Of a stretch of DNA of 64,000 nt, positions 1,242 through 58,195 are shown one piece after another; the stretch's first letter is position 1; the number at the start of each line of letters is the position of its first letter. Origin of the DNA: Patescibacteria group bacterium (lineage in GTDB: Bacteria > Patescibacteriota > WWE3 > UBA101185 > UBA10185); assembly GCA_049322215.1 (NCBI GenBank), contig JBMORU010000001.1, positions 772,023-836,022 on the forward strand, written 5' to 3'. The notes under the pieces were generated by a model. The model did no database searches and had not been told where the DNA came from. It worked only from the letters and a program-made list of their open reading frames with translations. Position numbers and translations under genes: made by a program.

Positions 1242-3242
1242 ATGAACTTCAAACGCTTTATTCCGTTGATTGCCTTGTTTGTTTTAGTTGGTGCTTATAT
1301 TGTTTTCAACTTACCTGCAAGTAATCAATCAACACTTAAAAAAATTACAAATAAAAGTACAAATTCTCCTGTGGTTTTAGTGGGTGAAAGTTGGAGTATT
1401 GGCGAAATCAAGTCTGATTATGAGGTAAGTAGTGAACTGTTACCTTTTAGGTCAAGTGCATGGTGGAAGCACCCTGAAATAAACAATTGTAATACTTATG
1501 TTTATCCCTACCCTTATGTTTTAGAATTAAATAGCAATAAAATAGGTGTTGGTATTTTATCACCATTACCATCAAAAGATTTTGTTGTTGGAAAAAAGGC
1601 AGGATTAATAAACTTTACTTTTAATGGTGAATTCACTAAGTGTGGTGTGACAAGTGCGCAACAATTAAGTGCTGACTTCAATTTAAAAAATGACAGCACC
1701 ACTGTAAATATTTTTGCAGCTAAGGGGTTAGGATATATTTATTTTGATACAAATGCTACAACATTATCACTTGAAGCCGCTGAAATTTCTAAATTAGAAA
1801 ATTTTGACAATAGAGTAATTGCCACTACTAACGAAACTACATTTGGTATAGAGTTTAATTCTTCAGTTAATATTGAAGATAAAAATAAAATTACTTCTAC
1901 TAATAGCGATTCCCTAAAATTTTCAGTATTTTTAATGCCAAATGGTTATACAAATGACCTGTTTGCAAATGTTCCGCAAAATAAAGTTGATTTCATAAGC
2001 ACATTCTCACAATCGGAGGACTCATATATGCAGGAATTCAAATTGAGCGAAGCAGTGCCCGTATATTTAATGCCTCATCACTACATCAATAAAGAAAACC
2101 CAAGCGAAGTTTTTGTTTCAACACTTAGAGGAAACATGCGACTTGAAGTTACCGATTTTTTCACAGCAGAAATTCCAAACTATTTGCAACAAGTTCCTAA
2201 ACAAATAAAACTTACAGAACAACAAAAACAAACTTTAGCTACACAGTTAAGAAAAGATATAGGAACCTTTGAAGACTTAAAAAATGCAGATGGAATTTAC
2301 TGGAAAGGTAAAACTTTAGCAAAGTATGTGAATTTACTATACGTGGCAAATTTGGTAGAAGATAAGACTAGCTATGACTTAATTTTTAATGAAATATCTA
2401 CAGAGTTAGACGATTGGTTTTTATTGAGCTCTTTAAGTGATAAAAAATACTTTTCATACGATAACAATTTGGGTGGTTTAGTAAGCAGTTCTGAAGAGTT
2501 TGGTCATCAAGAATACAATGATCATCATTTTCATTATGGATATTGGGTGTACACAATGGGAATGCTTGCCGAGTTAGAACCAAACTATGCGAAAAAATAT
2601 TCTACATTAGTTGATTATTTAATTAGAGATGTTGCAAGCAATGATATGTACGACCCTAGTTTTCCTTATTTAAGACACTTTGATTTATATGAAGGTCATA
2701 GTTATGCCTCTGGTTTAGTATATTTTGCAGATGGAAATAATCAGGAATCCACATCAGAAGCAGTAAACTTTTGGTATGGAGCACACAAATGGTACAACGC
2801 AATGCAAATGGCAGATAAAGCGGATTGGTATTCTGTTGCCTATAATTTAGAGGCCTTTACTTCTAATGTTTATTATCACAATACCTATAATTTGAGCGAT
2901 GTTTTTCCGCCAGAGTACAAACACGAATTAGCCTCTATAGTTTGGGAAGGAAAATATGACTTTGCAACTTGGTTTAGTGCTGATCCAAATGCAATTCATG
3001 GTATTCAAATACTTCCTGTTACATTTGGTTCATACTATTTAAACAACTCTGAGTATGCTAAGCGTAAAATAACTAGTTTAAACAATGAAGCCTTAGAAAA
3101 GTCTTGGGGTGATATAAATTTAGGTTATGAAATAATTAATGGTTTGGCAAAAGAGCAAGATATAGAAAATGTTGTCATTACAGATTCAGGTATTACAAAA
3201 ACATGGCTTTATATGTTACTATACGCAAAGGATATAGGTTAA
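1242..3242 (+). CDS. secreted or membrane-anchored glycoside hydrolase, GH81-like (endo-beta-1,3-glucanase family)
   Basis: N-terminal TM/signal anchor; motifs YNDHHFHYGYW and NNQESTSEAVNFWYG resemble the conserved GH81 catalytic-region motifs (established family knowledge; no search run). Confidence 0.55.
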   Translation: MNFKRFIPLIALFVLVGAYIVFNLPASNQSTLKKITNKSTNSPVVLVGESWSIGEIKSDYEVSSELLPFRSSAWWKHPEINNCNTYVYPYPYVLELNSNKIGVGILSPLPSKDFVVGKKAGLINFTFNGEFTKCGVTSAQQLSADFNLKNDSTTVNIFAAKGLGYIYFDTNATTLSLEAAEISKLENFDNRVIATTNETTFGIEFNSSVNIEDKNKITSTNSDSLKFSVFLMPNGYTNDLFANVPQNKVDFISTFSQSEDSYMQEFKLSEAVPVYLMPHHYINKENPSEVFVSTLRGNMRLEVTDFFTAEIPNYLQQVPKQIKLTEQQKQTLATQLRKDIGTFEDLKNADGIYWKGKTLAKYVNLLYVANLVEDKTSYDLIFNEISTELDDWFLLSSLSDKKYFSYDNNLGGLVSSSEEFGHQEYNDHHFHYGYWVYTMGMLAELEPNYAKKYSTLVDYLIRDVASNDMYDPSFPYLRHFDLYEGHSYASGLVYFADGNNQESTSEAVNFWYGAHKWYNAMQMADKADWYSVAYNLEAFTSNVYYHNTYNLSDVFPPEYKHELASIVWEGKYDFATWFSADPNAIHGIQILPVTFGSYYLNNSEYAKRKITSLNNEALEKSWGDINLGYEIINGLAKEQDIENVVITDSGITKTWLYMLLYAKDIG

Positions 3243-19204: not shown

Positions 19205-19945
19205 TTAAGTAACTTCCAGTATTTTTTTTATTCTCTCCAACCTTTCAGAGGTACCAACATCTTCCCAAAGGGTGTTTTGAGGATAAATAAAGGCTTTTAC
19301 ATCTTCTTTATTTGTTAAAAGAGTAGTATATAAATCATCATCCCCAAAAAGTCCCCAAAATACATTTTCTGGAATTAACTTTAAATGTGCTTTGTTTATT
19401 ATATGTTGAGACGCAAACACAAGTTTTGTTTTGGTATTTCCGTACTTGTTTCGGGCGGCTTCTGTAATATTGAAGTTATCATCTATACCTATGCTCTTTG
19501 CATAGGCGTCTTCGTTTTTATTAACTAATGCTAGCGTAGCTACTTGGGTGCCGTTTTTATGAAAATTAAGTAGTTTACTAAAATCTAAATTGGTTACTAT
19601 ATCAGCGTTGCAAACTAAAATGTCTTCGTTTTCATGTATAAAGTTTTCAGTTTTTTTTAAATCGCCTCCTGTTCCTAAAAGGTTATTTTCGGGTAGTTCT
19701 ATAAATTTTACTTTTAAGTGTTTGTAGTTATTTTTATATCTATCATAAAATTTTTCTGGGAAGTATCTTACTGTAATGATAACGTCACTTATTTTAGTGA
19801 GCGATATTCTATCAAGCGTGTATTCAATTAAAGGTTTCCCATTAACTTCTACAAGAGGTTTTGGAAGAGAATATGTAAGAGGACGTAGTCTAGTACCCAA
19901 GCCGCTCGCTAAAATTACTGCTGTTTTTACGTGTTTTTTTATCAT
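19205..19945 (-). CDS. sugar-phosphate nucleotidyltransferase (NDP-sugar pyrophosphorylase)
   Basis: AVILASGLGTRLRPLTYSLPKPLVEVNGKPLIEY; ORF track starts 19981, the internal Met (MIKKH) is more likely. Confidence 0.65.
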   Translation of the reverse strand: MIKKHVKTAVILASGLGTRLRPLTYSLPKPLVEVNGKPLIEYTLDRISLTKISDVIITVRYFPEKFYDRYKNNYKHLKVKFIELPENNLLGTGGDLKKTENFIHENEDILVCNADIVTNLDFSKLLNFHKNGTQVATLALVNKNEDAYAKSIGIDDNFNITEAARNKYGNTKTKLVFASQHIINKAHLKLIPENVFWGLFGDDDLYTTLLTNKEDVKAFIYPQNTLWEDVGTSERLERIKKILEVT

Positions 19946-20066
19946 AGTGCTGTTATAACGAAATTTTACTATATTAATCACTCCTTGACTTATTTATATA
20001 AATATTTTATAAACTTAAGTTATAGTTTGTATACTATAAGTTTCTGCCCAATCTAAAGGAAAAATA

Positions 20067-22478
20067 ATGTCAACAACCAACCGAATTACTACTTTTATTG
20101 TATTTTTTATAAGTCTTTTTTTAGCATCCTCACAAATAAACACTTTAAATGCACAAACAACCTTAAAAATAAATGCTTATAAAGTAGTTTGTGATAGTGA
20201 AAGTGCTTTGCCAAACTGGGGAGATGGTGGAAAACCATCTGTAATTAATGAAACTACAGCTAAAGACTTTATAAACACCCATGAAAATTGCTATTTTGTT
20301 GAGAATTGGGCATTTCAATGGGGTTTTCACGATAAAGATCAAGGAATAACTCAAGGAGTAGACAAGTTAGTTGGTACTCACTTGGGTACAGCAAGCGGTA
20401 CTCCCTCAGTTTGTGACTACAACTGTGGCGTTAACACTAATAGTGGTAATGCATTTAATGAATGGAAACTTTTTGATACTACAACTGGCCCTTTAGGAAC
20501 ACCTGCAACAGTTGAAATAACTAATTTAGAGAATTCTCCTGGTATTTGGGTTAGAGAGGTATTAACGGCAGATTACATTCCTTATACATACCCAAATCAA
20601 GGAAGCACAGAAAATGATGTTACTGCCGAGTTATATTGTCACCAAGACATAGCTAACTTTGATAATTACGATTTAGTAAGTCCTATTTTCCTAGGTTCTA
20701 CATATAACTGTATTGCCTTTAATGTAATAAATGAACAACCTGTAGATTTGTGTCTAAATATTGAGGGTGTGCAAGAAGAAATACCTGAGAGTTTTTATTT
20801 TGACTCTGAGGTCGAAGCTTGTTTGCCTATTGAAGACGAAAAAGAAGAAGCTGTTTTAACAATATCAAAAGTCAATAATGCCAGTGAAAATAACAAAGAA
20901 ACGGGTGATAACGTAACTTATACAATAATTGTTTCTCTAAACGAAGATTCCCAGGAAGTAAAAAATGTAGAAGTAATTGACTTGCCACCTGAGGGTTTCT
21001 CATATGTTTTAGGGTCTTGGACATCCTCATCAGATGTAAGAGGTGACTTAAAAGACGAAGGCATTACAACTGAGCCTACTTATTCTTCTCCTGGTGTGTG
21101 GCAATTAGGCACTATGACTCCAGGTGAAACAGTTACTTTAACTTATGTAGCTAATATTTCAAGTTCTATAGATCCTGGGCTTTACAAAGATGCCGCATGG
21201 TCAAAAGGTATTGTAGGGTTAAATAATGTGTTTGCAAATGCAGACTCTGGGATTTTTGTAGGTACAACGGTAAACGTAGTAAAACCAGTATCTTATTCTG
21301 AAAACGTTGAAGTAGAAAAAGAAGTAAAAGAAGTTGTAGAAGAAGTTTTAGGTGCCTCTTCTCAACGCCTGTTACCTGCAACTGGTGCTAACACAATTTG
21401 GTTAGCCTCTGCAATTTTAGTGTTTGTATTTGGAGTTATCATGATTGGTTATTCTTTAGTTTTAAAAAGTAAAAAACTTAGAGCTTACTTAAGACTGTTT
21501 TCAGTTTTAATTGTTGCTGGATTAATATTTGTTAGTGGTTTTAGTTCAAATGTTTATGCAGCAGAATTGATTGTACGAATAGAAGAACCGAAGTCACCAA
21601 CAAATGATTCTACATTTGATATTAACTTTGTTGCGCTAGATATTAACAATAGACCAGTAACAATTAAATGCTATGGTAGAAATGTTTCTAATTCATTTGT
21701 GCAGCTAGGTTCTGATCAAAACCTTCAAGCAGGCGGAGATTCAGGAAACTGTAGTGTTGGAAACGACTTAATTACGAGAACAGGAGACTACGAATTTTAC
21801 GTTAAAGCTTTTGCCGAAAGTGACGAGGTTTCCTCCTCTATAGTTAAAGTAGTTTATGACGATACCCGCCCTGGGCAACCAAGAAGCTTTTCTAAATCTA
21901 AATTAGACTCTTGTAAGTACGAAATATCTTTTAAAACAGCAAAAGACGGTGGTGATACAACTAGAGTTGAAGTGTATCGTTCTTCTGAAAAGGACTTTGA
22001 CGCAGATTCAGAATCTTCAATAAAAAATATCGATATTGGTTCTGATAAAAAGGTAAAACTTGAAGTTGAACGCCCTGAATGTGGTAAAAAGTATTATTTC
22101 GCTGTTAGGGCATTTGATGCTGCAGGAAACGTGTCTAAGGTATTAGTAGAAACTGTTGAAGAAACAGAGACCACCATAGTAACTATTGAATCAAGTGTTA
22201 ATGCAGGACAGGGTCCAATTCCAGTTTCCGGTGATGTTGGTTTTGTACTATCTTCTTCAACTGGAAGCACTAACAATGGCTTAGAACTTGAAAATGGTGA
22301 TTTGTTAGGAGATAGCGTAGAGTCTACAGAAGCAGTAAGCGACATAGTAACTAACATACCTACTAACCCTGACTCAGACAGCGATGATACAACAAATAGA
22401 TTATTGTTTTGGGTACTAGTTATACTTGTGGCATTAGGAGTACTGTATGATATATACAGGAAAGTGGCTAAAAAGTAA
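20067..22478 (+). CDS. large surface protein with signal peptide and an internal LPATG sorting signal (LPATG 21372-21386 + TM + KSKK) followed in-frame by a second signal-peptide-like segment, an Ig/FN3-like domain and a C-terminal TM anchor
   Basis: N-terminal signal peptide; LPATGAN + hydrophobic stretch + basic tail = classic sortase sorting signal but at aa about 436 of 803; then FSVLIVAGLIFVSGFSSNVYA|AE and final LLFWVLVILVALGVLY TM. Confidence 0.6.
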   Translation: MSTTNRITTFIVFFISLFLASSQINTLNAQTTLKINAYKVVCDSESALPNWGDGGKPSVINETTAKDFINTHENCYFVENWAFQWGFHDKDQGITQGVDKLVGTHLGTASGTPSVCDYNCGVNTNSGNAFNEWKLFDTTTGPLGTPATVEITNLENSPGIWVREVLTADYIPYTYPNQGSTENDVTAELYCHQDIANFDNYDLVSPIFLGSTYNCIAFNVINEQPVDLCLNIEGVQEEIPESFYFDSEVEACLPIEDEKEEAVLTISKVNNASENNKETGDNVTYTIIVSLNEDSQEVKNVEVIDLPPEGFSYVLGSWTSSSDVRGDLKDEGITTEPTYSSPGVWQLGTMTPGETVTLTYVANISSSIDPGLYKDAAWSKGIVGLNNVFANADSGIFVGTTVNVVKPVSYSENVEVEKEVKEVVEEVLGASSQRLLPATGANTIWLASAILVFVFGVIMIGYSLVLKSKKLRAYLRLFSVLIVAGLIFVSGFSSNVYAAELIVRIEEPKSPTNDSTFDINFVALDINNRPVTIKCYGRNVSNSFVQLGSDQNLQAGGDSGNCSVGNDLITRTGDYEFYVKAFAESDEVSSSIVKVVYDDTRPGQPRSFSKSKLDSCKYEISFKTAKDGGDTTRVEVYRSSEKDFDADSESSIKNIDIGSDKKVKLEVERPECGKKYYFAVRAFDAAGNVSKVLVETVEETETTIVTIESSVNAGQGPIPVSGDVGFVLSSSTGSTNNGLELENGDLLGDSVESTEAVSDIVTNIPTNPDSDSDDTTNRLLFWVLVILVALGVLYDIYRKVAKK

Positions 22479-23112
22479 GATTACCCGCTTATCGAAGTCT
22501 GATCTAGCTTTGTTATTTGGTTTAATACTAGTGGGCGTATCTATAGCTTGTATCTTTGTAGTTTTTTATCCAGTATTAAAAGAAGAGTTTAGATATAACT
22601 TTGAAAAACGATACGTAGACCCCAAAGTTTTACTTACTAACCCCAGCATAAAAGTTCCAGGATATATTGTACCTGTTGACACATCGTTTAGCGTTGTTAT
22701 TCCTAAAATTGGAGCTAATTCAAAAGTTGTGGCAAATGTGGATCCCTACAATTCTAATGAATATCAGGTTCAGCTAACAAAAGGGGTAGCACATGCTTTA
22801 GGTACAAGTTTTCCCGGAATGCCCGGGAACACCTTTTTGTTTGCACACTCATCAGGAAATATTTTTGAAGCAAATAAATACAATTCTATCTTTTATCTTT
22901 TAAATAAGTTGGAATACGGCGATGAAATTTTTGTAGCTTATTTTGGGGAGTTATATACATATAAAGTACATACAATTAAAGTTGTTGAAGCAGCAGATGT
23001 AGAATACCTTAAAGATGAAAACTCTGATAAATCAATGCTAACGCTAATGACCTGTTGGCCAGCAGGTACAACATTAAAAAGGTTAATTGTTCAGGCAGAC
23101 GTTATAAATTAA
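22447..23112 (+). CDS. sortase (transpeptidase)
   Basis: N-terminal TM, LFAHSSG (catalytic His), TLMTCWP (TLxTC catalytic Cys), KRLIV (Arg); overlaps the LPXTG gene 3' end. Confidence 0.7.
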   Translation: MIYTGKWLKSKITRLSKSDLALLFGLILVGVSIACIFVVFYPVLKEEFRYNFEKRYVDPKVLLTNPSIKVPGYIVPVDTSFSVVIPKIGANSKVVANVDPYNSNEYQVQLTKGVAHALGTSFPGMPGNTFLFAHSSGNIFEANKYNSIFYLLNKLEYGDEIFVAYFGELYTYKVHTIKVVEAADVEYLKDENSDKSMLTLMTCWPAGTTLKRLIVQADVIN

Positions 23113-24602
23113 AGATATTCTGCTTGGTAAACGTGTACCCATAAGTATTTAGAAAACTGCTTTTTCTCAAGTTTTGTGAAGTGATTATCAAAATAGTTTC
23201 TCACTAATGCTGCATTTTCTAAATCTTCCGAAATTAAAAGGTACATTTTTTGATGTCCTTGTCTCAAAAATTCTGTATCTTTTTCAATAGTTTCTGCAGT
23301 TGCTGCTGGTATACCAGATTTTCTTCTATCCCAAAAAGGAATAGTTACCATACGCGCTTTTGAAGAGTAATAATACTGAACAGGATATATGTTGTAAGGT
23401 GGACTTAACAGTACTAAATCTCTAGGAGATGCGTTTTCATTTATATATTGAGTAGCAGCTCTATAATCTTCTACCTTAGGGTTATAACTGCTGGTTCTTT
23501 GGTTGTGGAGGGATATTAACATTAGCCCAAACAATAACACTAAAACACCATACTTCAATTTCCCTCTTATTTCATCGATATACCAGGCAATTAAAATGAA
23601 ATATAACGGTGTAGCAGATACCAAGTATCTTGTTAAATATACAGGCTTAGCTAAAACACTTACACCAAAGGTTAAAACTACAGGTAGTACAGTACCTAGT
23701 AAAAGAAAATATATCCAATAAGTAAAGGGGTCCTGTCTTTTGGTTAAAAATATAAAACCAAGTAGTATTATTAGTGGCCATAAACCAATAATAAATGCGG
23801 CATATTCTTCGGGTTGATACCCAAAAGTGAATTCGAAGAAGCTTAAAAACATATTAAAGCTATTTGGGGTGGTTAACGATGGTGCATATGTTCCGGCATT
23901 TGTAGCAGTGGCAAGCATACGTAGCCATGGAATAAAAGCTAAAATCAACGCTAGTGCAGAAATAACAAGTCCCCATAATATATAAATCTTCTTTGTTTCC
24001 TTGTTAATTTGTGTTTTCCATGCAGCTATAAAGAAAATTACTTGAACAAGTAAGACTAAACCAAAATAGTAATGGGTATAAATACCAAGAATGTTAAATA
24101 AAATATAACCTAAGTAATAACCAGGTTTGTGTGTTTTTATGATTTTTACAAAAAAGTAGTATGACATTATTGAGGCAAAGGTAAGTAGGGTATACATTCT
24201 AATTTCTCTGCTATACCAAACCCAAAAAGGGGATACTGCAGCTATTGTTGTAGCTATTAATGCTCGTTCTTTATCTAATACTTCTTTTGCAAGCAAGTAT
24301 ATTGCGGGTAAGCATAGTAGCCCAGGTATTAAGGCTAATGTTCTTACTGCGGTTTCAGAAGTACCAAATGTTTCCATCCAATAGTGTAGTAAGGTGTTAT
24401 GTAAGGGCAAGTGCACATTTTTAGCCATGTAAAAACGTATGTATTCAATAGTATGTGACGCTTGCCATACACTTTGAGCTTCGTCTAAACGTAATCCGCT
24501 ATAACCCAGCTTCCAAATGCGTAATAAAGATCCTATTAGAATAACTGTCACTAATAGTATTTGGTGAGCATATTTTTTATGTAATATACCTTGTTTATTC
24601 AA
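23109..24602 (-). CDS. GT-C fold glycosyltransferase, family 39/ArnT-PMT-like (polytopic membrane)
   Basis: LLRIWKLGYSGLRLDEAQSVW N-terminal loop motif typical of PMT_2/ArnT; about 11 TM. Confidence 0.6.
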   Translation of the reverse strand: MNKQGILHKKYAHQILLVTVILIGSLLRIWKLGYSGLRLDEAQSVWQASHTIEYIRFYMAKNVHLPLHNTLLHYWMETFGTSETAVRTLALIPGLLCLPAIYLLAKEVLDKERALIATTIAAVSPFWVWYSREIRMYTLLTFASIMSYYFFVKIIKTHKPGYYLGYILFNILGIYTHYYFGLVLLVQVIFFIAAWKTQINKETKKIYILWGLVISALALILAFIPWLRMLATATNAGTYAPSLTTPNSFNMFLSFFEFTFGYQPEEYAAFIIGLWPLIILLGFIFLTKRQDPFTYWIYFLLLGTVLPVVLTFGVSVLAKPVYLTRYLVSATPLYFILIAWYIDEIRGKLKYGVLVLLFGLMLISLHNQRTSSYNPKVEDYRAATQYINENASPRDLVLLSPPYNIYPVQYYYSSKARMVTIPFWDRRKSGIPAATAETIEKDTEFLRQGHQKMYLLISEDLENAALVRNYFDNHFTKLEKKQFSKYLWVHVYQAEYL

Positions 24603-26235
24603 TTTCTAATTCTCCTGTAGTTTCTTCATTAGACGCAAAAATTAATGCTTTATTAGATTCTTTTTGAGTAGCATGTTTTTCTTTAACTCTGAATAAAAAC
24701 TTTGATTTAGAATAGCTATATACTGGGTTTAAAAGTTTATTCCAATTGTAGCCAGCACGAATAAATCCAAAAAAGAATATGCTATTAAAAATAATCCATG
24801 CAATATTTGTTACAACCGATGGAATTAGTCCTTCCCTGGCAATTCCAATTCCAATTGCTATAACCCCCACAGTTATATAAGTTATATGGGGTATTGCAAG
24901 CTTTAAGAAATTACCTTCCTGAGCATCTTTTGGTGTTACATCAAAGGAGTCTTTTTTATTAAACAACACAGCTACCACGGCTTTTATCATTATGTAAAAG
25001 CTACTCATAGACATTTGAATTGCTCTAAAAGTTATTGTGTTATGAGTAGACATCATTAAAAGGTAAAGTGTAGAAAACATGAAAGGGAAGAAGTAAATCA
25101 TAAAATTGGTAGAGTTTTGATTTACAGGCATTAGTCCAGTACTTAAGGCAATTACTGGTATAAGTGCGTCTATTAAAATTACAATACCGTTTAGCCAGTA
25201 ACCAGATGAATACAAATACTGCACTTTTTGCCCCCAAGTTAGTTTTCTGTTAAGTAACGGATTATGTTTTAGTATTATTTCGAGTGAACCTCTTGCCCAT
25301 CTATATTGTTGTTTTGCGTAATCTTGCAGGTTATGAGGTGCCATACCTTCGGCTAATACTTCAGGCCAGTAAATAGACTTCCATCCATTTGAATGCAGGT
25401 AGTAAGACATTATAAAGTCTTCTGCAATATTGTCTTCTGGAAATCCTCCAACCTCTTCAACTGCAGACTTTCTTGCAACAAAATTTGTACCACAACAAAA
25501 TGTGGCATTCATTCTTACTTTTCCTCTACAAATTGGTCCAAAAAACAATTCCTGTTGTTCCCAGGCAGCTGTAGTTAAAAAGCTATTGTCTTTGTTTTGG
25601 TAATATTGAGGAGTTTGAACAAATGCTACTTTTTCATCTTTAAAAAAGCCCATTGTTTTTGTTAAAAAGTCTGCTCTAGGTACATGATCGGTATCAAATA
25701 AGGCTATAAAAGGTGCATCCACAAGATTTAATGCATTATTTACATTACCTGATTTTGCCCCTCCAGGTTCCTGTCTTGTAACTGCGGTAACGCCATATTT
25801 TTTTGCTACTTCATTATTTTCTTGCCATGGTGTTTTTATTTTTTTTGTCTTTTCAAAAACATATCCATCATTTAAAAAGTAAACCTCATAATTGGGGTAA
25901 TCTAGCTCAGTTGCAGCCTTTAAAATATTTTCTACAACCTCAGGGGGTTCTATACTTCCTACAATCATTATGGCAACTTTTGGGAATTCTTTTAGTTTAG
26001 CCAAACGTGGCTTTTTCTGATCCCAGATTGTATATGCGTAACCCAATGCTAAAAGCACATGATAAACCTCGCCAATAAATAATAACGAGTATAAAAGTAT
26101 GTTTCCTGCATTATTAAAATCAAGCCACCAGGTAAAGTAAATAAGTGTAAATACTACTGATAAAGAAATAATAAACTTTGGTACTTCAGTTGGTTTAGAA
26201 ATTATTTCATGCGGTGTTCTATTATCAATCTTCAT
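24595..26235 (-). CDS. processive family-2 glycosyltransferase, cellulose-synthase-like (paralog of 3290-4816)
   Basis: FDTDH (DxD), VQTPQYYQNKD, FCCGTNFVARKSAV, QQYRWARG (QxxRW). Confidence 0.8.
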   Translation of the reverse strand: MKIDNRTPHEIISKPTEVPKFIISLSVVFTLIYFTWWLDFNNAGNILLYSLLFIGEVYHVLLALGYAYTIWDQKKPRLAKLKEFPKVAIMIVGSIEPPEVVENILKAATELDYPNYEVYFLNDGYVFEKTKKIKTPWQENNEVAKKYGVTAVTRQEPGGAKSGNVNNALNLVDAPFIALFDTDHVPRADFLTKTMGFFKDEKVAFVQTPQYYQNKDNSFLTTAAWEQQELFFGPICRGKVRMNATFCCGTNFVARKSAVEEVGGFPEDNIAEDFIMSYYLHSNGWKSIYWPEVLAEGMAPHNLQDYAKQQYRWARGSLEIILKHNPLLNRKLTWGQKVQYLYSSGYWLNGIVILIDALIPVIALSTGLMPVNQNSTNFMIYFFPFMFSTLYLLMMSTHNTITFRAIQMSMSSFYIMIKAVVAVLFNKKDSFDVTPKDAQEGNFLKLAIPHITYITVGVIAIGIGIAREGLIPSVVTNIAWIIFNSIFFFGFIRAGYNWNKLLNPVYSYSKSKFLFRVKEKHATQKESNKALIFASNEETTGELEIE

Positions 26236-27448
26236 AGTCAGTTATCCCTTCTATATTATTTAAGTTAAGTAATTTATTTTCATATAAGGCCATTCCAAAC
26301 CACACCCAATTTTGTGAGTAATAACCTAAGTCTTTATTTTCATGGAATTTTTCTAAATCTTTATCATATAAAGAAGCAATTTTTGTTACGTAAATTTCTT
26401 TGGCTAGGTCTTCGTTTACTATTTGCATAGCAGGCAATATTGCTCCATATAAACTATTACTTTGATACGTAACCAAAGGGGTTCCGTTTTCAGCATAGCG
26501 GGCTAGTATTTTTCCTTCTTTAGTCCATTCATTTTGCAAAAAGGTTAATGATTCAAGATATTCTTTAGCTTGGGGATTGCGGTGCCATTTCCAATCAAGG
26601 GCAACTCGCCAGGGTACCCGTATTGCATCGTCAGAAAAGGCAACTGTTTTATCAAAATGCGAGGCCTTTAAAATTTCACCAGATGTTGGGTCAATACTTA
26701 CCCAGTCAGGAGGTAGTCCAACAGTGTTTTCTTTTTCCAACGGGTTTTCTTGTATTGTTTTTAAAACTTTGTATGAAGTGTCTCTTAACGCTAACCAATC
26801 GTGTTCTGGATCAACTTCTGCAAAAATTGGATATGCAGCAAAAGAGAAGTATGAAGGGTTTATTGTAGGAAAAGCTTCGCTTTTTGCCCAATTACCTGCA
26901 AGTAAGTATGGTTCGCCTTGTATCTCAATTACTTCTATTTCCCATATATCCGCAAGTATTTCCCGAGCTTGTTTTATATACCTTTCTTCGTTCCATCTTT
27001 TAGAAGCAAAAATTAAAGCTAGTGCTATGTCTTGATCTGCATCAGTAGCTGTGTTTAAGCCTCCTTCATCAAAAATTATTCCCCAGCTTCCATTTTTACT
27101 TTGTCCCCACATCCACGCGAATAGTTTATCTGTTTCTCTTTTTCTTAAGTTATTATTTGTCCAGGTTAATACTTTATCAAAGGTTGCTTTGTCGTCCATC
27201 CAAACAGCCCTAAGTAAAGAATAGGATTGTCCTTCAGAGGTAGTTAAATAATTTCTTTCTCTATCAATTGTTCTACCATCTTTTTGTATTTTATCTCTGT
27301 ATTCAAACCACAAGTTTTCTATTACTACATTGGGGTAAGTTTCTATAAAAATGTTTCTTTCAGGTGCTACAGGACTAATCATTGTTTGAGTTCCTATTAA
27401 GAAAGTTGTTATTAAATATTTAATTGTATTAACAATAGACTCGATCAT
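26225..27448 (-). CDS. glycoside hydrolase family 8 (endoglucanase, BcsZ-like), secreted
   Basis: TSEGQSYSLLRA and ATDADQDIALALIFASKRW match the GH8 signature A-[ST]-D-[AG]-D-x2-[IM]-A-x-[SA]-[LIVM]-[LIVMG]-x-A-x3-[FW]. Confidence 0.75.
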   Translation of the reverse strand: MIESIVNTIKYLITTFLIGTQTMISPVAPERNIFIETYPNVVIENLWFEYRDKIQKDGRTIDRERNYLTTSEGQSYSLLRAVWMDDKATFDKVLTWTNNNLRKRETDKLFAWMWGQSKNGSWGIIFDEGGLNTATDADQDIALALIFASKRWNEERYIKQAREILADIWEIEVIEIQGEPYLLAGNWAKSEAFPTINPSYFSFAAYPIFAEVDPEHDWLALRDTSYKVLKTIQENPLEKENTVGLPPDWVSIDPTSGEILKASHFDKTVAFSDDAIRVPWRVALDWKWHRNPQAKEYLESLTFLQNEWTKEGKILARYAENGTPLVTYQSNSLYGAILPAMQIVNEDLAKEIYVTKIASLYDKDLEKFHENKDLGYYSQNWVWFGMALYENKLLNLNNIEGITDYED

Positions 27449-27700: not shown

Positions 27701-28753
27701 TTGAAGAAGACTAGTGTTTACCTTGATTTACTTTTGCACTCTTATATACTTACAAATATGCAATTCATTTCAAATACAACCTATGATGATACTGCAACAG
27801 TTCAAAGATTCATAAGAACACTTGCCGGTGCTGTTTCACTTATATTGTTAATATTTATTCTTGTTTTGCCTGCTAGTGCTTTATCTACCGCTACTTTTGA
27901 TAATCCCTTTATATTTGGTTTACCTGCATTACTTTTAGGTTTTTGGGTAGCAAGTGTTGTTTCAAAAATGTTTTATATTTTACCTGAATGGCAAAAACTT
28001 GTTTTGTTGCGTTTAGGTAAATTTGTTGGCGTACGTGGTGCAGGGTTTTTTATAATTCCTCCCTTTATTTTTTCTGTTGCTTCTATAGTTGATATGCGCA
28101 TAGTTACGCAGCAGGTGGAAGCTACTGCCACATTAACTAAAGACAATGTACCTATCAAGGTAACAGCTGCGATAGAATATAAAGTAGAAGATCCGCGAAA
28201 AGCAGTTATTGACGTGCAAAATTATAGAACATCTGTAACCTGGCTCTCAACAGAAGCCCTTAAAAATACAATTGGTAGTTTAGACTTAAAAGAATTGCTA
28301 AGCGAACGTGAACAAATAGCTGAATCTTTAAGAAAACAAATAGATGAAGGCGCCGCAAGTTATGGAGTTGATGTTAAGGCGGTTCGAATTACCGATGTTG
28401 ATACTCCTCAATCGTTAATTGAAGAACTTGCAGTTATAGCTAGAGCTAGACGTGCATCTGAAGCTAAACAAATTCAGGCTGCAGCAGAAGTTCAAGTTGC
28501 TCAAAAAATGGTAGAAGCTAGTCGCTTGCTTAATACTTCCTCAAGTGGCATGAAGTTACGCGAGTTACAAGTATTAAGTGAAATGAGTAAGGAAGAAAGT
28601 TCTATGATAATAGTGTATCCTTACGGAGATGTAGATGGAAAAAGTTTAGCTCAAGCATCTGCAGGCAATATAAGCATGACAAAGCACAAAGACACACAGG
28701 AAAAAATTGAGGAATCAAGTGGAGAAATCTCAATCCCAACACAATACAACTAA
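27701..28753 (+). CDS. SPFH/band-7 (stomatin/prohibitin-like) membrane protein
   Basis: TM then the SPFH core (VDMRIVTQQVEA...KDNVPIKVTAAIEYKVEDPRKAV) and coiled-coil; the ORF-track start is TTG, the true start may be the ATG at 27760. Confidence 0.7.
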   Translation: MKKTSVYLDLLLHSYILTNMQFISNTTYDDTATVQRFIRTLAGAVSLILLIFILVLPASALSTATFDNPFIFGLPALLLGFWVASVVSKMFYILPEWQKLVLLRLGKFVGVRGAGFFIIPPFIFSVASIVDMRIVTQQVEATATLTKDNVPIKVTAAIEYKVEDPRKAVIDVQNYRTSVTWLSTEALKNTIGSLDLKELLSEREQIAESLRKQIDEGAASYGVDVKAVRITDVDTPQSLIEELAVIARARRASEAKQIQAAAEVQVAQKMVEASRLLNTSSSGMKLRELQVLSEMSKEESSMIIVYPYGDVDGKSLAQASAGNISMTKHKDTQEKIEESSGEISIPTQYN

Positions 28754-29486
28754 AAAAGAACTAAAGGGAACTAATTTAGTGATAATTATAACAGTGATAG
28801 TTTCTTTGCTTGGAGCTTATTTTGTTGGCTCTAAAATAAGTTCTTTTAAATTCTCGTCAAAGTTTACATCTTCTTTAAACTCTGAAGAGTCTGTAGTAGT
28901 ACCCGACTTTGAACCTACTCAATCTGTAACTTTAGCTGTTGTTACTGGAGAAGATCATATTTATGGTGATGAATTCGCACCAATAGCAATTGTGGAATAT
29001 TCTGATTTAGAATGTTCTTTTTGTGGGACGTACAACAATACTATAAAGGAGTTTGTTGATAAAAATGAAGGCAAAGTTATGTGGGTATATAGGCATTTTC
29101 CTATAGAGAATTTGCACCAAAATGCACGACTTGCCGCTGAGGCTACTGAATGTGCCTACTCTATAGGTGGAGAAGATGTTTTTTGGAAAATGCTAGCTTC
29201 AATTCATGAAAGCGCCGATGAAGAAGGTAATATAGAAAAAGAAAAGCTTCCAGAGATAGCAAAAAATTTAAATATACATATAGGTGACTTTGAGGAATGT
29301 TTAGACACCAAAAAATTTGAACTTAAAGTAGAGAGTATATTTAATACAGGTCTTGTAGCTGGCGTAGAAAGCGTACCTACAACTTTTGTAATGCATATGG
29401 AAACAGGAGCACTAATTCCAATTGAAGGCTCAATTAGTGATAAAGTATTGCAGGCAGCAGTAAACGAAATGATGTCATACAAGTAA
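28707..29486 (+). CDS. DsbA-like thioredoxin-fold thiol:disulfide oxidoreductase, membrane anchored
   Basis: TM + CSFC (CxxC) active site in a thioredoxin-like context; start uncertain (TTG 28707, GTG 28719 or GTG about 28776 after RBS aaggga). Confidence 0.6.
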   Translation: MRNQVEKSQSQHNTTKKELKGTNLVIIITVIVSLLGAYFVGSKISSFKFSSKFTSSLNSEESVVVPDFEPTQSVTLAVVTGEDHIYGDEFAPIAIVEYSDLECSFCGTYNNTIKEFVDKNEGKVMWVYRHFPIENLHQNARLAAEATECAYSIGGEDVFWKMLASIHESADEEGNIEKEKLPEIAKNLNIHIGDFEECLDTKKFELKVESIFNTGLVAGVESVPTTFVMHMETGALIPIEGSISDKVLQAAVNEMMSYK

Positions 29487-32311: not shown

Positions 32312-33913
32312 TTGCCTACCAAAATTTCCTGCTATACTTTTTTTATGTTACGAAAATGGAACATATTTGCATACATATCGTTGGCCGTTGTAGCTACCTG
32401 GCTTAGGTTAATGAATTTAGGCTATTCTGATTATCAAGGTGATGAAATAAAAGCTTTGTTTTTAATAGATCCCAATGAGTCTGTATCTGAATTTTTGCTT
32501 TCTCAAAGAAAAGGTCCTATTCAATTTTTAATTACATTTTTACTAAAGTTTTTAGACCCAGAATACATGAATAGGTTTTTAATTAGACTTCCTTTTGCTT
32601 TTGCAGGTATTTTTGCTGTCTACTTTTTTTATAAGTTTTTACAACTTCATTTCAACAAAAAAGTATCATTTTATGCCACCTTCTTTTTTGCTACAAATGG
32701 GTTTTTAATTGCTTTTGCACGTATAGTTCAATATCAATCTTTTGTAATACTTTTTATGGTACTTGCGCTTTATACATTTAGTTTGGCTGCAAAAAAAGAA
32801 AATTGGAGTAAGAAAGGTATTTACTTAGGCTTTATTTTTTGGGCGTTATCTATTTTGTCACATTATGATGGTGTATTCATTTTTCCTTTTGTTGTATACA
32901 TTCTTGTTGAGTGGGGAAAAAAGTATGTATTTGATGTAGATGAAAAGTTTGAGCATTTAAAACATTTATTCCTTTCCCTTTTTATTAGTGGTGTACTTAT
33001 GGCTCTATTTTATATTCCATTTATTTTTGCAATTACCGATGCAACTGCAAGTTATTGGCAGGGGAGAATAGTAGGTACAGGGGGCAAAATTGCAAGTTCC
33101 ATAGTTTTGTTTAGGGTATATCAACCTATATATGTTTTTCATATTTATACTTTACTTTCAGTATTTGGTTTAGGTGTTTTGATAAAAGATTATTTAAACC
33201 TAAAAGAGTATAAATCTATAGCGCTGATTACCTGGGCTTTGTTGCCTTTTTTGTTTCTTGAAGTTTTTGTAAGTATTCCGGGAACACATATATATACATA
33301 TTTAATTCCTTTAATGGTACTAATGGGAATAGGTGTAAAGGGCATAGAACGTTTTATGTACTATGTTTCTGGACGACTTGCTCCTATTGCGAAACCTATT
33401 GTGCGCTATATTAATATTGCAGGAATTTTAGTTATTTTTACTTTTATATTTTTACAGGTAAATGCCATATTTGTTGACCATACAGCAGAGTATCCCTGGG
33501 AGCCTGAAAAGTTTTTACTTTGGGAGTTTCACCAACCATCTCCAGCTTTTCATTTAAGTATGTTTGGGTTTCCATATTACAGGCATTGGGATGAAATTGG
33601 CCAATATGTTACCTCTACCGAAAACAATGGCTATTACTCAACTAATGAGCGGAGTTCTATTTCTAGATATCATATTCCATTTAACAAAGATACTGATAGT
33701 GCTGGGCACTTTGTTCACATAATTAACCCGCAAAGCTTCACGCCGAATCCTACACAGGAAAAGGCACAATATTGGGAAGAAAATTACGACCCTGTTAAGG
33801 TTTTTTATAGTGAAGATCCTAATACTCCAGGTAGATTAAGAGAAATTGTGAAGATATATTATATGAAGGTAGGTTCTTTAGATGATTTATTGAAGCAAAA
33901 CCAAATAGAGTAG
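32312..33913 (+). CDS. polytopic membrane protein, GT-C/GT39-like glycosyltransferase candidate
   Basis: WLRLMNLGYSDYQGDEIKALF N-terminal loop similar to 23109-24602; multiple TMs. Confidence 0.45.
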   Translation: MPTKISCYTFFMLRKWNIFAYISLAVVATWLRLMNLGYSDYQGDEIKALFLIDPNESVSEFLLSQRKGPIQFLITFLLKFLDPEYMNRFLIRLPFAFAGIFAVYFFYKFLQLHFNKKVSFYATFFFATNGFLIAFARIVQYQSFVILFMVLALYTFSLAAKKENWSKKGIYLGFIFWALSILSHYDGVFIFPFVVYILVEWGKKYVFDVDEKFEHLKHLFLSLFISGVLMALFYIPFIFAITDATASYWQGRIVGTGGKIASSIVLFRVYQPIYVFHIYTLLSVFGLGVLIKDYLNLKEYKSIALITWALLPFLFLEVFVSIPGTHIYTYLIPLMVLMGIGVKGIERFMYYVSGRLAPIAKPIVRYINIAGILVIFTFIFLQVNAIFVDHTAEYPWEPEKFLLWEFHQPSPAFHLSMFGFPYYRHWDEIGQYVTSTENNGYYSTNERSSISRYHIPFNKDTDSAGHFVHIINPQSFTPNPTQEKAQYWEENYDPVKVFYSEDPNTPGRLREIVKIYYMKVGSLDDLLKQNQIE

Positions 33914-56326: not shown

Positions 56327-58195
56327 ATGAATGAAGATAATAAGGTTGATGGGTTTTCGTTTAATCCACAACACGATTTAGTAGAGTTCTTAAAAGAAAA
56401 AGCACCTGAGGTATTTACCGAAGGAAAAATAGATGCAGATAAGTTAAACGCAACACTTGGAAATGTTGTATCTGTAGGTAGTGAGAAATATGGGCTAAAT
56501 TGGGCGGGAAAAAGCGACTGCTTTGCAGAAATTCAAAAAACTACAACAAATACTTTAAAGCCATTAAAAGATAAATCAATACGCTTTGACGAAACAGAAA
56601 ACATTTTTATTGAGGGTGAAAACCTAGAAGTTCTTAAAATATTGCAACGCTCTTATTTTAATAAAGTGAAAATGATTTATATTGACCCGCCTTATAACAC
56701 TGGGAGCGACAGCTTTATTTATGATGACAAGTTTAAGTCGAGCAAAGAATATTATGAGAAAGAGGCTGGTGTAAGGGATGGGAATGGAGATTTGAACAAA
56801 GACTCGCTATTTAGAAAAAATACAGCAGATTCTGGACGCTACCACTCTAATTGGTTGAATATGATGTATCCCCGCCTATTCCTGGCAAGAAACTTACTCC
56901 GCGAAGATGGGGTTATTTTTGTAAGTATAGATGGGTATGAGATGCACAATCTACGACTATTATTAGATGAAATTTTCGGAGAAGAGAACAAAGTAGGAGA
57001 ATTCATTTGGAAAAGCAAACACGGTGGAGGGGGTGACAACCCCTTTATGGTGCAAGAACATGAGTACATTCTTTTCTATGCCAAAAACATTAATGCACTT
57101 GAGCCTCTTTTTGTTACTCCTCCAGACAAGTATTTTGATATGTTCAGATACGAGGATTCTAAAGGTAAATATTATCTGGATAGACTAGATAAGAAGGGTA
57201 TAGACCAGAATCGACCCAACCTTATTTATCCAATTAAATGTCCAGATGGGACAACAAAAGATATCAGTCCCCAAATATGGCGATTGTCTGAAGAGGAATT
57301 TAATAAAAGGAAATCTGAGGGATTAGTAGAATTCAAGAAAGATAAAAACGGAGAATGGCAAATATATACAAAGACATATCTTAGGGACGAGGATGGAAAC
57401 AAGCGAAGAGTGAAACCTAGAAGTGTTCTAAAACAAGAAATTGTTGGATTTACACAAAATGGTAATAAGGAGATGGTAGAAATTTTCGGTACTAAGTTAT
57501 TTGATAATCCGAAGCCTGTATCACTAATTAAATTCTTTTCAGACATTGCACTTTATGACCATAAGGATGCCTTAACTTTAGATTTTTTTGCGGGTTCTGG
57601 TACTACCGCCCAAGCTGTAATGGAACTAAACAAAGAGGATGGGGGTAATAGAAAATTCATATTAGTACAGCTTCCTGAGTTAACAGAGGAAAAATCCGAA
57701 GCATACAAAGCAGGTTACAAAAACATTGCAGATATAACACTAGCCCGTATACAAAAAGTCTCAGAAAAGTTATCCAGGGAAGGTACAAAGACAGATTTGG
57801 GCGTTAAAACCTACAAACTGGACAAATCTAATTTCAAAATATGGCAGTCTGATAAAATCAAAGATGCAAAAGACCTGCAGCAGCAGATGCTTTCATTTAC
57901 TGATATCATCCAGCCTCACTCCACCAAAGAATCAATGCTCTACGAGATAATGTTGAAGTCAGGATACCCATTGACCTCAAAAGTTGAAAACAAAGGGAAA
58001 TACTACTCTATTGATAGTAATGCCGCTGTTATTTGTCTGGAAGAAAAGACTAATGGCGATATTGTAGAGGATGTTTTGAACCTACAACCCCAACTATTTA
58101 TCTGCTTAGATAGCGGATTTTCCAGAAACGACCAACTAAAAACAAATGCAAAGTTGCAATTTAAGGACAAAGGAATTGAATTTAAGGTTATATGA
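56327..58195 (+). CDS. mod: Type III restriction-modification DNA N6-adenine methyltransferase (Mod)
   Basis: IYIDPPYNTGSD (motif IV, DPPY) preceding FFAGSGTTAQA (motif I) = beta-class order typical of Type III Mod. Confidence 0.85.
   Translation: MNEDNKVDGFSFNPQHDLVEFLKEKAPEVFTEGKIDADKLNATLGNVVSVGSEKYGLNWAGKSDCFAEIQKTTTNTLKPLKDKSIRFDETENIFIEGENLEVLKILQRSYFNKVKMIYIDPPYNTGSDSFIYDDKFKSSKEYYEKEAGVRDGNGDLNKDSLFRKNTADSGRYHSNWLNMMYPRLFLARNLLREDGVIFVSIDGYEMHNLRLLLDEIFGEENKVGEFIWKSKHGGGGDNPFMVQEHEYILFYAKNINALEPLFVTPPDKYFDMFRYEDSKGKYYLDRLDKKGIDQNRPNLIYPIKCPDGTTKDISPQIWRLSEEEFNKRKSEGLVEFKKDKNGEWQIYTKTYLRDEDGNKRRVKPRSVLKQEIVGFTQNGNKEMVEIFGTKLFDNPKPVSLIKFFSDIALYDHKDALTLDFFAGSGTTAQAVMELNKEDGGNRKFILVQLPELTEEKSEAYKAGYKNIADITLARIQKVSEKLSREGTKTDLGVKTYKLDKSNFKIWQSDKIKDAKDLQQQMLSFTDIIQPHSTKESMLYEIMLKSGYPLTSKVENKGKYYSIDSNAAVICLEEKTNGDIVEDVLNLQPQLFICLDSGFSRNDQLKTNAKLQFKDKGIEFKVI

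Follow-up and report, generated by a model that had tools for sequence, protein, structure and literature searches.

What is a sortase signal doing in the middle of a protein? The question is raised by an open reading frame (ORF) of 803 amino acids (aa) found in a 64,000-nucleotide stretch of the genome of a WWE3 Patescibacteria group bacterium (contig JBMORU010000001.1, positions 772,023 to 836,022; hereafter the window), in which an LPATG motif lies far from the C-terminus and a sortase gene overlaps the 3' end. A reading made from the letters alone (hereafter the sequence-only reading) had offered two explanations, either the fusion of two surface-protein genes or a single precursor that sortase cleaves into two parts, and the comparisons reported here indicate that these describe one and the same thing: the ORF is probably a natural polyprotein of a conserved surface-display cassette of Patescibacteria, cut at LPAT/G and at VYA/AE (the slash marking the cut). 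Its product is identical to the NCBI protein ACOZAO_04200, which derives from a metagenome-assembled genome (MAG) of a Patescibacteria group bacterium. The parts of the precursor, together with the sortase gene, are located as follows in the window, with the basis of each assignment in brackets.

20067..22478, plus strand: whole precursor ORF, 803 aa without in-frame stop, comprising an adhesin-like passenger, an internal sorting signal and an FN3 membrane module.
20067..20153, plus strand: N-terminal signal peptide, aa 1-29, ending ..TLNA/QT (hydrophobic segment at aa 6-27; cleavage site predicted by the -3/-1 rule).
20154..20852, plus strand: Cys-rich N-terminal domain of the passenger, aa 30-262, predicted beta-sandwich (alignment, AlphaFold2 (AF2) model and Foldseek, the last with a weak resemblance to Gram-positive pilins).
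20856..21326, plus strand: CLIPPER/DUF11 stalk domain, CnaA-like and of the isopeptide type (Pfam DUF11, 1e-08, aa 271-366).
21345..21356, plus strand: V-L-G-A motif, aa 427-430, the extended part of the sorting signal of the Candidate Phyla Radiation (CPR) (conservation over 177 sequences).
21372..21386, plus strand: internal LPATG sortase motif, aa 436-440 (sequence; conservation in the family).
21387..21464, plus strand: first transmembrane segment (TM1), aa 441-466, hydrophobic part of the sorting signal, predicted N-out/C-in (hydropathy; helix at residues 23-45 of the AF2 model).
21465..21476, plus strand: KSKK, aa 467-470, predicted cytoplasmic loop (doubling as charged tail of the sorting signal and as n-region of the signal peptide that follows).
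21477..21560, plus strand: TM2, or internal signal peptide, aa 471-498, ending V-Y-A/A-E (predicted signal peptidase I site).
21561..22151, plus strand: tandem FN3-like ectodomain, aa 499-695, with two invariant Cys pairs (conservation; AF2 predicted local distance difference test (pLDDT) >90; Foldseek).
22161..22400, plus strand: disordered acidic/Ser-Thr linker of ca. 80 aa, aa ca. 699-778 (pLDDT <50, residues 279-355 of the AF2 model).
22296..22310, plus strand: second G-x-(V/L)-L-G motif, GDLLG, inside the disordered linker (sequence).
22401..22475, plus strand: C-terminal stop-transfer segment TM3, aa ca. 779-797, with an RKVAKK tail (hydropathy; AF2).
22447..23112, plus strand: dedicated sortase, 221 aa, with an N-terminal TM anchor (Pfam Sortase; 32-nt overlap with the 3' end of the precursor).

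The LPXTG motif, the hydrophobic segment and the Lys/Arg tail that together make up a sorting signal are all present in aa 436-470, at exactly the positions that the sequence-only reading had assigned to them, and the second signal-peptide-like segment and the C-terminal TM anchor that it had described are both seen in the hydropathy profile. In the window protein this signal is internal, with 333 residues lying beyond KSKK, whereas the extreme C-terminal position is found only in the split relatives described below. When the six frames of the window are considered, the LPATG of the precursor is the sole LPxTG with a hydrophobic stretch behind it. A codon recount places the predicted VYA/AE cut behind A498, in a segment that reads ...SSNVYA/AE. 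According to these signals, the passenger is predicted to lie outside, TM1 to cross from outside to inside, the loop to remain inside, TM2 to cross from inside to outside, the FN3 pair to lie outside and TM3 to cross back from outside to inside. Scanning positions 19800-23400 for promoters and terminators gave sites no commoner than in shuffled sequence, and an Rfam scan of the window detected tRNAs only.

With the whole protein as query, 74 relatives were retrieved, all of them from Patescibacteria or CPR assemblies wherever the source was named. In about 48 of the 74, the LPxTG occurs 340-430 aa from the C-terminus and is followed by two hydrophobic segments and then by a C-terminal one. The N-terminal parts of these relatives vary in length and domain content, and the C-terminal ca. 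370-380 aa appear in the alignment as a strongly conserved module. When 1.84 billion cluster representatives were searched with a profile of this module, 2586 were matched at E<1e-3, with 562 of these at E<1e-30; among the 150 matches listed, the module is invariably located at the extreme C-terminus, in proteins of ca. 400 to 3090 aa. Conservation of the internal LPATG, on which the sequence-only reading depended, was found at the equivalent position in 164 of 175 module-bearing proteins, which carry an LPxTG (LPATG in 112, LPSTG in 18, LPGTG in 14, and others), with MPSTG in two more, the motif lost in one and the module standing alone in seven. This conservation, taken with the uniqueness of the motif in the window, places the internal LPxTG far beyond chance. 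Over 177 sequences, stand-alone forms included, the L, P, T and G of the motif are each 93-95% conserved and the V, L and G of the upstream V-L-G-(A/S) motif 92-94%; the latter also precedes ordinary C-terminal LPATG signals. A Gly in TM1 is conserved as well in the module alignment.

The G-x-V-L-G sequence occurs twice, a first copy being located 6-9 aa before LPXTG and a second ca. 47 aa before the C-terminus of the module, and GxVLG is present within the last 110 aa in 147 of the 177 module sequences. The motif could belong to a linker that spans the wall, mark a protease site or act as a cue for glycosylation, among other possibilities. That the module might itself be a second sortase substrate, through an LPXTG in its tail, was considered and rejected, a motif-like match being detected in only one of the 177 sequences.

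Profile and hidden Markov model searches found no Pfam, NCBIfam or PDB-sequence family matching the module: the PDB sequence search with the module profile gave nothing at E<=1, Pfam at E<=1 gave only a sub-threshold Filamin match and NCBIfam only a sub-threshold MXAN_2561 match. The AF2 model consists of a helical hairpin, two beta-sandwiches (pLDDT >90), a disordered tether of ca. 75 residues and a terminal helix. Each of the two beta-sandwich domains holds one invariant Cys pair (C535/C562 and C616/C672), and an FN3-like YYxAVRAFDxAGNxS motif is conserved in the ectodomain. Foldseek aligned the modelled ectodomain with the integrin beta4 FN3 pair (6e-8), with Tie2 FN3 (4.5e-7) and with RbmA (3e-6). 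The ectodomain is, as modelled, a tandem FN3, and this is information at the level of the fold only; the Ig/FN3-like region that had been recognized from the sequence is borne out by the high pLDDT (>90 for aa ca. 500-690) and by these matches to tandem FN3 pairs.

The gene that overlaps the precursor by 32 nt encodes, as had been announced from its TLMTCWP segment, a sortase: Pfam Sortase PF04203 matches with 86.4 bits for a cut-off of 26.6 (1.7e-24) and TIGR01076 with 58.5 for a cut-off of 39.35. The models of the individual classes stay below their cut-offs (class C 70.7 vs 160, class D 51.7 vs 165, class E 46.1 vs 160, class F 22.4 vs 166), and the class A model is not listed among the NCBIfam matches of the sortase. 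Since no class model reaches its cut-off, the enzyme is placed in an unclassified "LMTCWP" clade. Its best PDB match is the class C sortase 8t28 (2.9e-12), with an alignment that runs through the TLxTC segment. In the eight module-linked sortases compared, H134, C203, R212 and the LMTCWP(P/A/I)G signature are invariant, and His134, Cys203 and Arg212 are taken as the predicted catalytic triad. Our reading of the translation shows a TM at the N-terminus only and none at the C-terminus.

The list of 150 module matches is biased towards fused forms, the profile containing the LPXTG and TM1; a survey was therefore anchored on the sortase, which makes it unbiased for fusion state. The alignment of the eight module-linked sortases, used as query, retrieved at least 440 relatives among the GTDB species genomes; 80 loci were fetched (numbered, like the other loci named here, with the prefix L), 74 of which had enough upstream sequence. 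In this set, 46 sortases lie behind a fused precursor and 23 behind a split pair; the remainder consists of one second sortase of a split cassette (L066), one locus masked by N and three sortases without a module. Thus, ca. 96% of the surveyed sortases belong to a cassette, with a fused to split ratio of ca. 2:1. The dedicated substrate-sortase pair proposed from the sequence is supported, with 71 of the 74 sortases of the LMTCWP subtype located directly downstream of a module; the FN3 module is in this sense a near-obligate partner of the subtype, which lacks it in three cases of 74. Several cassettes may occur in the same genome, each accompanied by a sortase of its own (L008, L001).

In the split layout, an LPXTG protein with a normal stop is followed by a module gene of ca. 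320 aa (signal peptide, tandem FN3 and TM) and then by the sortase gene. Seven of the 150 top representatives correspond to such modules, being proteins of ca. 315-328 aa that have their own Met and an ordinary signal peptide followed directly by the ectodomain; the TM2 segment of the fused form is thus the N-terminal signal peptide of a separate gene in the split relatives. In locus L007, the gene upstream of the module ends with ...GEVLGASISLPSTGAATIWLVLAGGLAGFGVTSLIYGIKLRRKHD and a stop (LPSTG, TM, then KLRRKHD), a textbook C-terminal sorting signal, and the ATG of the module overlaps it by 8 nt (AAG CAT GAC TAA). In split cassettes, the AGG AGG AAG codons of the Arg/Lys tail also provide the module gene with its Shine-Dalgarno sequence (L007:181-204). 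This arrangement, in which the tail codons form the Shine-Dalgarno sequence and the stop overlaps the ATG of the module, explains why the LPXTG proteins repeatedly end in ...RR(K)(Y/H)(A/E/D/V). Two relatives of the window protein in which the LPATG occupies the ordinary C-terminal position (P0059 and P0060, loci L008 and L009) are likewise followed by a module gene, of 323 and 326 aa, and then by a sortase gene; these module genes match the module profile at 7.6e-84 and 8.9e-96, respectively. The fusion alternative of the sequence-only reading is accordingly reflected in many relatives that carry the same parts as two overlapping genes (L007, L008 and L009 in addition to the 23 split loci of the survey), and the halves occur as separate genes in 24 of the 74 loci. 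The single-precursor alternative is reflected in the 46 fused loci, in which the LPxTG, a positive loop, the AXA-type site and the dedicated sortase are all kept, and for which we infer the cleavage and the attachment target.

The nearest neighbours of split modules include fused ones, at 55-66% identity, indicating that the two states interconvert and have changed more than once. WWE3-labelled loci of the survey are all fused, including that of the complete genome CP006914.1 (L023, with an LPATG 359 aa before the end), and Gottesmanbacteria-labelled loci are mostly split in our tally. Overall, the cassette is spread over Microgenomates, WWE3, Parcubacteria-type and Saccharibacteria-labelled genomes. 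Many cassette contigs (L013, L020, L024, L028 and others; binchicken MAGs) carry the label of an uncultured Gammaproteobacteria, Bdellovibrionales or Pseudomonadales bacterium, and such labels on CPR-type cassette contigs are probably wrong.

Other sortase genes were encountered in the loci examined. In L008 (positions 2-1244), a second system is composed of a protein ending ...LAFTG-TM-KKRSV and of a "TLYTCTG" sortase, with no FN3 module, so that CPR genomes can carry at least two types of sortase. In L066, two tandem sortase genes (L066:5374-5958 and L066:6001-6579) occur behind the module of one split cassette; the first has TLMTTYPPGT in place of TLMTCWPPGT, the catalytic Cys being replaced, and looks like a catalytically dead paralogue. 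Finally, the cassettes of L001 and L006 are located beside genes for Peptidase_M73 (TasA/camelysin-like), S24 signal-peptidase-like and LTD-domain proteins, which suggests larger surface-fibre loci.

The processing signals themselves can be followed across the fused family. Measured over 164 fused proteins, the TM1-TM2 loop is short, with medians of 6 aa, three K/R and no D/E, and its net charge is positive in 97.6%; its composition fits a cytoplasmic loop that would serve both as tail of the sorting signal and as n-region of the signal peptide. In all but one of 173 sequences (172), the invariant P508 is preceded at a distance of 7-16 residues by a small-x-small site of the AXA type (positions -3/-1), for example AFA/A, AYA/A or VQA/A, and VYA/A in the window protein, which indicates that fused forms kept the signal-peptidase site that split forms need.

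With the architecture, the conservation, the equivalence of fused and split forms, the linkage to the sortase and the topology signals established, the processing of the polyprotein can be proposed as follows. The N-terminal signal peptide would export the adhesin-like passenger (Cys-rich domain and CLIPPER domain) via Sec until TM1 halts the transfer, leaving the LPATG just outside the membrane and the KSKK loop in the cytoplasm. TM2 would then resume export in the manner of an internal signal peptide, with translocation of the tandem FN3 and anchoring by TM3. The co-transcribed LMTCWP sortase would cut LPAT/G and move the passenger to an acceptor, most likely a peptidoglycan precursor, as the analogy with other LPXTG systems suggests. 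The proposed substrate stretches for this sortase are ...EVLGASSQRLLPATGAN... and ...GEVLGASSQRLLPATGANT.... Signal peptidase I would cut VYA/AE and free a type-I membrane protein composed of the tandem FN3, a long acidic tether and a TM, and a TM hairpin of ca. 58 aa would be left over for degradation. The end products would be the same two proteins that split relatives produce from separate, translationally coupled genes.

Several points weigh against this proposal. The TM and AXA calls are based on hydropathy and on the -3/-1 rule, and we infer both cleavages in every member of the family. The Foldseek matches of the FN3 module are those of generic tandem FN3/Ig domains. In addition, 44% of the fused proteins keep a Met in the loop, so that internal initiation could add some module there; the window protein has no loop Met.

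The role of the module can be considered further. Our guess is that the sortase and the conserved CLIPPER-LPXTG end of the stalk use it as an adaptor or dock onto it. A wider hypothesis, which we put forward as tentative and rather doubtful, is that LMTCWP represents a new Patescibacteria-wide class of sortase, active only together with an obligate tandem-FN3 co-factor in the membrane, which would serve either as acceptor, in a protein-to-protein ligation onto a membrane-tethered stalk, or as an essential adaptor that presents the substrate. If so, surface display in CPR would be a three-component system whose mechanism is not known from Firmicutes or Actinobacteria, and with a polyprotein precursor a 1:1 stoichiometry and the co-localisation of the parts would be enforced.

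Among the explanations that compete with the polyprotein, the one that survives best is that LPAT is joined by the sortase not to peptidoglycan but to a lysine within the FN3 module, with K610 at the start of FN3-2 as candidate, yielding a covalent, membrane-tethered two-part fibre in the manner of a basal pilin that accepts the shaft. K610 is the only strongly conserved Lys of the ectodomain (92%), the sortase is weakly closest to the class C (pilin-polymerising) enzymes, the passenger domains are pilin- or adhesin-like in look, the module is an obligate neighbour of the sortase and the long disordered tether could span the wall. We nevertheless consider this outcome unlikely. K610 is replaced by Arg in 10 and by Val in 4 of the 177 sequences, so that a structural role fits better than that of an essential nucleophile; reading of the sequences for features of sortase-dependent pilins pointed to conserved lysines (K39 in the N-terminal domain, K610 in the module), which are candidates for structural or isopeptide roles, but to no YPKN-type pilin motif; the sortase has no C-terminal TM and, with 70.7 bits for 160, remains below the class C cut-off; and cutting then re-ligating a single chain would bring no obvious gain over a plain TM anchor. 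Separately, the new N-terminus made by signal peptidase was considered as the sortase nucleophile and rejected, the +1 residues not being conserved (A, D, E, G, T and others).

An internal in-frame start, here M459, could alternatively make the module in addition to, or mainly instead of, the full-length product, and cleavage of the polyprotein would then be unneeded for a free module. A GGAG is indeed found 5 nt upstream of the ATG at 21441 (M459), a loop Met is kept in the proportion of fused relatives given above and split forms use their AGG AGG AAG tail codons as Shine-Dalgarno. This explanation is very unlikely given that the only candidates of the window protein, V452 and M459 inside TM1, are not conserved in the alignment, that 56% of the fused proteins, the window protein among these, have no loop Met, and that a full-length product would still be translated and would still need processing. 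Equally hard to sustain, and if anything less probable, is an unprocessed multi-pass protein in which the LPATG is a relic and the two ectodomains are joined by a TM hairpin: TM1 alone would suffice as anchor of the passenger, yet L, P, T and G are each 93-95% conserved in the 177 sequences, a dedicated sortase is kept beside 71 of 74 cassettes, fused and split forms interconvert with a canonical C-terminal signal in the latter, and the AXA site is kept in fused forms. The weakest explanation, an assembly or sequencing indel in the A-runs at 21465-21476 (AAAAAGTAAAAAA) that would hide a stop between two really ordinary genes, as the sequence-only reading had suspected, is rejected, since, although the homopolymer runs lie exactly at the junction, where one-base shifts would make TAA or TAG stops, and although genuine split versions occur in other genomes, our reading of the sequence reveals no in-frame ATG, GTG or TTG before TM2 after such a shift (V452 and M459 being inside TM1, upstream of the runs), the two closest homologues (46% and 43% identity) are likewise fused, and the fused layout recurs in independent assemblies amounting to 46 genomes, one of which is complete (CP006914.1).

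Returning to the polyprotein, its passenger begins with the Cys-rich domain (aa 30-262), which is shared with other CPR surface proteins, some bearing PG_binding_1 or DUF5011, and whose alignment displays invariant C, W, R-E and N columns. It was modelled by AF2 with a pLDDT of 76.8; its best Foldseek matches are RrgB D1 (2e-3) and the SpaE basal pilin (0.03), with no Foldseek match below 1e-3 and no Pfam match, and the label "pilin-like" for the modelled domain is to be taken as a lead only. Residue K39 (20181-20183, first strand) is nearly invariant, and E164 (20556-20558, in WVRE) and N219 (20721-20723, in CVAFN, last long strand) are invariant; these correspond to alignment positions K13, E138 and N193. 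Their pattern is that of an intramolecular isopeptide triad and makes them candidates only, in a domain that has no Pfam family. The CLIPPER/DUF11 domain (PF01345) that follows was matched with 35.9 bits for a Pfam cut-off of 24.6 over aa 271-366 and spans residues ca. 264-420. CLIPPER/DUF11 has been described as a CnaA-like isopeptide stalk domain (PMC12617251). It is kept beside the sorting signal in fused and split relatives alike, BLAST coverage starting at query positions ca. 257-264.

An internal LPXTG with double processing is an arrangement already known from the Zmp proteases. In the streptococcal IgA1 protease/ZmpA, ZmpB, ZmpC and ZmpD, the signal peptide is accompanied by an LPXTG that is not terminal, by a pair of TM segments and by another signal-peptidase site, and double processing by sortase and signal peptidase has been proposed for them, the atypical LPXTG being required for localisation (PMC3518915). 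The window protein has the same four elements, and in both cases a large extracellular part follows the LPXTG. The differences are nonetheless substantial. In the Zmp proteins the LPXTG is located near the N-terminus with the M26 protease behind, whereas here a large passenger comes first and the tandem FN3 with its TM lies behind. The two groups show no sequence homology, no Pfam M26 or G5 match being found in the window protein, only DUF11/CLIPPER and a weak FN3-like one. Zmp proteins use the housekeeping SrtA; the CPR family has an adjacent dedicated sortase and also exists as split genes.

In canonical Gram-positive anchoring, LPXTG sorting signals are recognized by sortase (Pfam PF00746 / TIGR01167; Mazmanian, Ton-That, Schneewind). 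The cassette shares with it the motif, the helix and the positive tail, the His, Cys and Arg columns of the sortase and, in split relatives, a true C-terminal signal; unlike it, the signal of the window protein is internal (aa 436-470 of 803) and extended upstream by G-E-V-L-G-A-S, and no curated sortase model of classes A-F fits. The resemblance to sortase-assembled pilus loci resides in isopeptide-type Ig-like surface proteins (CLIPPER, SpaA, SdrD_B) clustered with a dedicated sortase, in a sortase closest to class C by PDB and NCBIfam comparisons and in the weak matches of the N-terminal domain to RrgB D1 and SpaE. However, no pilin motif was identified in the sequences, the sortase is below the class C cut-off and has no C-terminal TM, the partner encoded in the cassette is anchored by a TM and not by an LPXTG, and the passengers reach 3000 aa, which suits fibrillar adhesins better than polymerising pilins. 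Finally, the sortase adjoins its own substrate as does the class GN "marine" sortase (TIGR03784, single target), from which it differs by clade (30 bits with TIGR03784 for a cut-off of 158) and by motif; to our knowledge, an FN3 membrane partner is not part of these one-sortase/one-target systems.

The Pam pilus of CPR is assembled by donor-strand exchange with no sortase or LPXTG, and its accessory proteins include the membrane-anchored, two-domain PamC/D and PamR, a tandem FnIII protein with a C-terminal TM (bioRxiv 10.64898/2026.03.03.709456). The likeness, by description only, is that of a CPR-specific surface fibre with Ig-like subunits, and the module matches RbmA, the fold assigned to PamR. 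That the cassette encodes a Pam pilus was rejected, Pam being a sortase-free donor-strand system.

A large part of bacterial diversity falls within the Patescibacteria. To present knowledge these bacteria live attached to other cells, and the construction of their surface is barely understood. The cassette is widespread in CPR/Patescibacteria and apparently undescribed so far: no description of it was found in the literature on internal LPXTG motifs, on LPXTG in Patescibacteria, Microgenomates or Saccharibacteria, and on sortase polyproteins. Sortases as such have been reported as common in CPR and near-ubiquitous in Microgenomates (PMC6744442). New here are the conserved FN3 membrane module, which is linked almost obligately to a distinct clade of sortases, the occurrence of the cassette in both fused and split form, the upstream extension of the sorting signal (GEVLGAS-LPATG) and the scale. 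The cassette was found through its sortase in at least 440 reference genomes, and because it carries the largest adhesin-like proteins of these bacteria, it is probably a main display route for their host-contact proteins. After the streptococcal Zmp proteases, it offers a second and much larger natural example of internal LPXTG, together with a candidate sortase accessory protein, and the natural fused/split pair illustrates how a single charged loop can belong to a sorting signal and to a signal peptide at once. In genome annotation, such fused ORFs should not be "repaired" as frameshifts, and the module and the GEVLGAS-LPATG signal could form the basis of profile models.

In the neighbourhood of the cassette, a DsbA/thioredoxin-like protein is encoded 5.6 kb downstream (28707-29486, plus strand; Pfam Thioredoxin_4, 4.8e-19) and could plausibly oxidize the invariant Cys pairs of the module and the Cys-rich domain of the passenger. 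A CPR protein family with a conserved disulfide-forming CxxC has been compared to MdbA of Actinomyces oris, itself linked to sortase-mediated pilus assembly (PMC6744442). Immediately downstream of the sortase gene and converging on it, the region 23109-27448 (minus strand) encodes a PMT_2 glycosyltransferase, a cellulose-synthase-like glycosyltransferase of family GT2 and a GH8 hydrolase, with another PMT-family gene at 32312-33913; the PMT_2/GT2/GH8 cluster looks like an exopolysaccharide or protein-O-mannosylation locus beside the cassette. Further away, a type III restriction-modification-like set (56327-62507, plus strand) is composed of three ORFs:

56327-58195, plus strand: N6_N4 DNA methylase.
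58192-59793, plus strand: unscanned ORF.
59766-62507, plus strand: ResIII/DEAD helicase with a C-terminal endonuclease domain.

At the other end of the window (1242-3242, plus strand), a 666-aa protein displays a C-terminal GH81 domain (2.1e-60); GH81 enzymes are endo-beta-1,3-glucanases, an unusual activity for a small-genome Patescibacterium.

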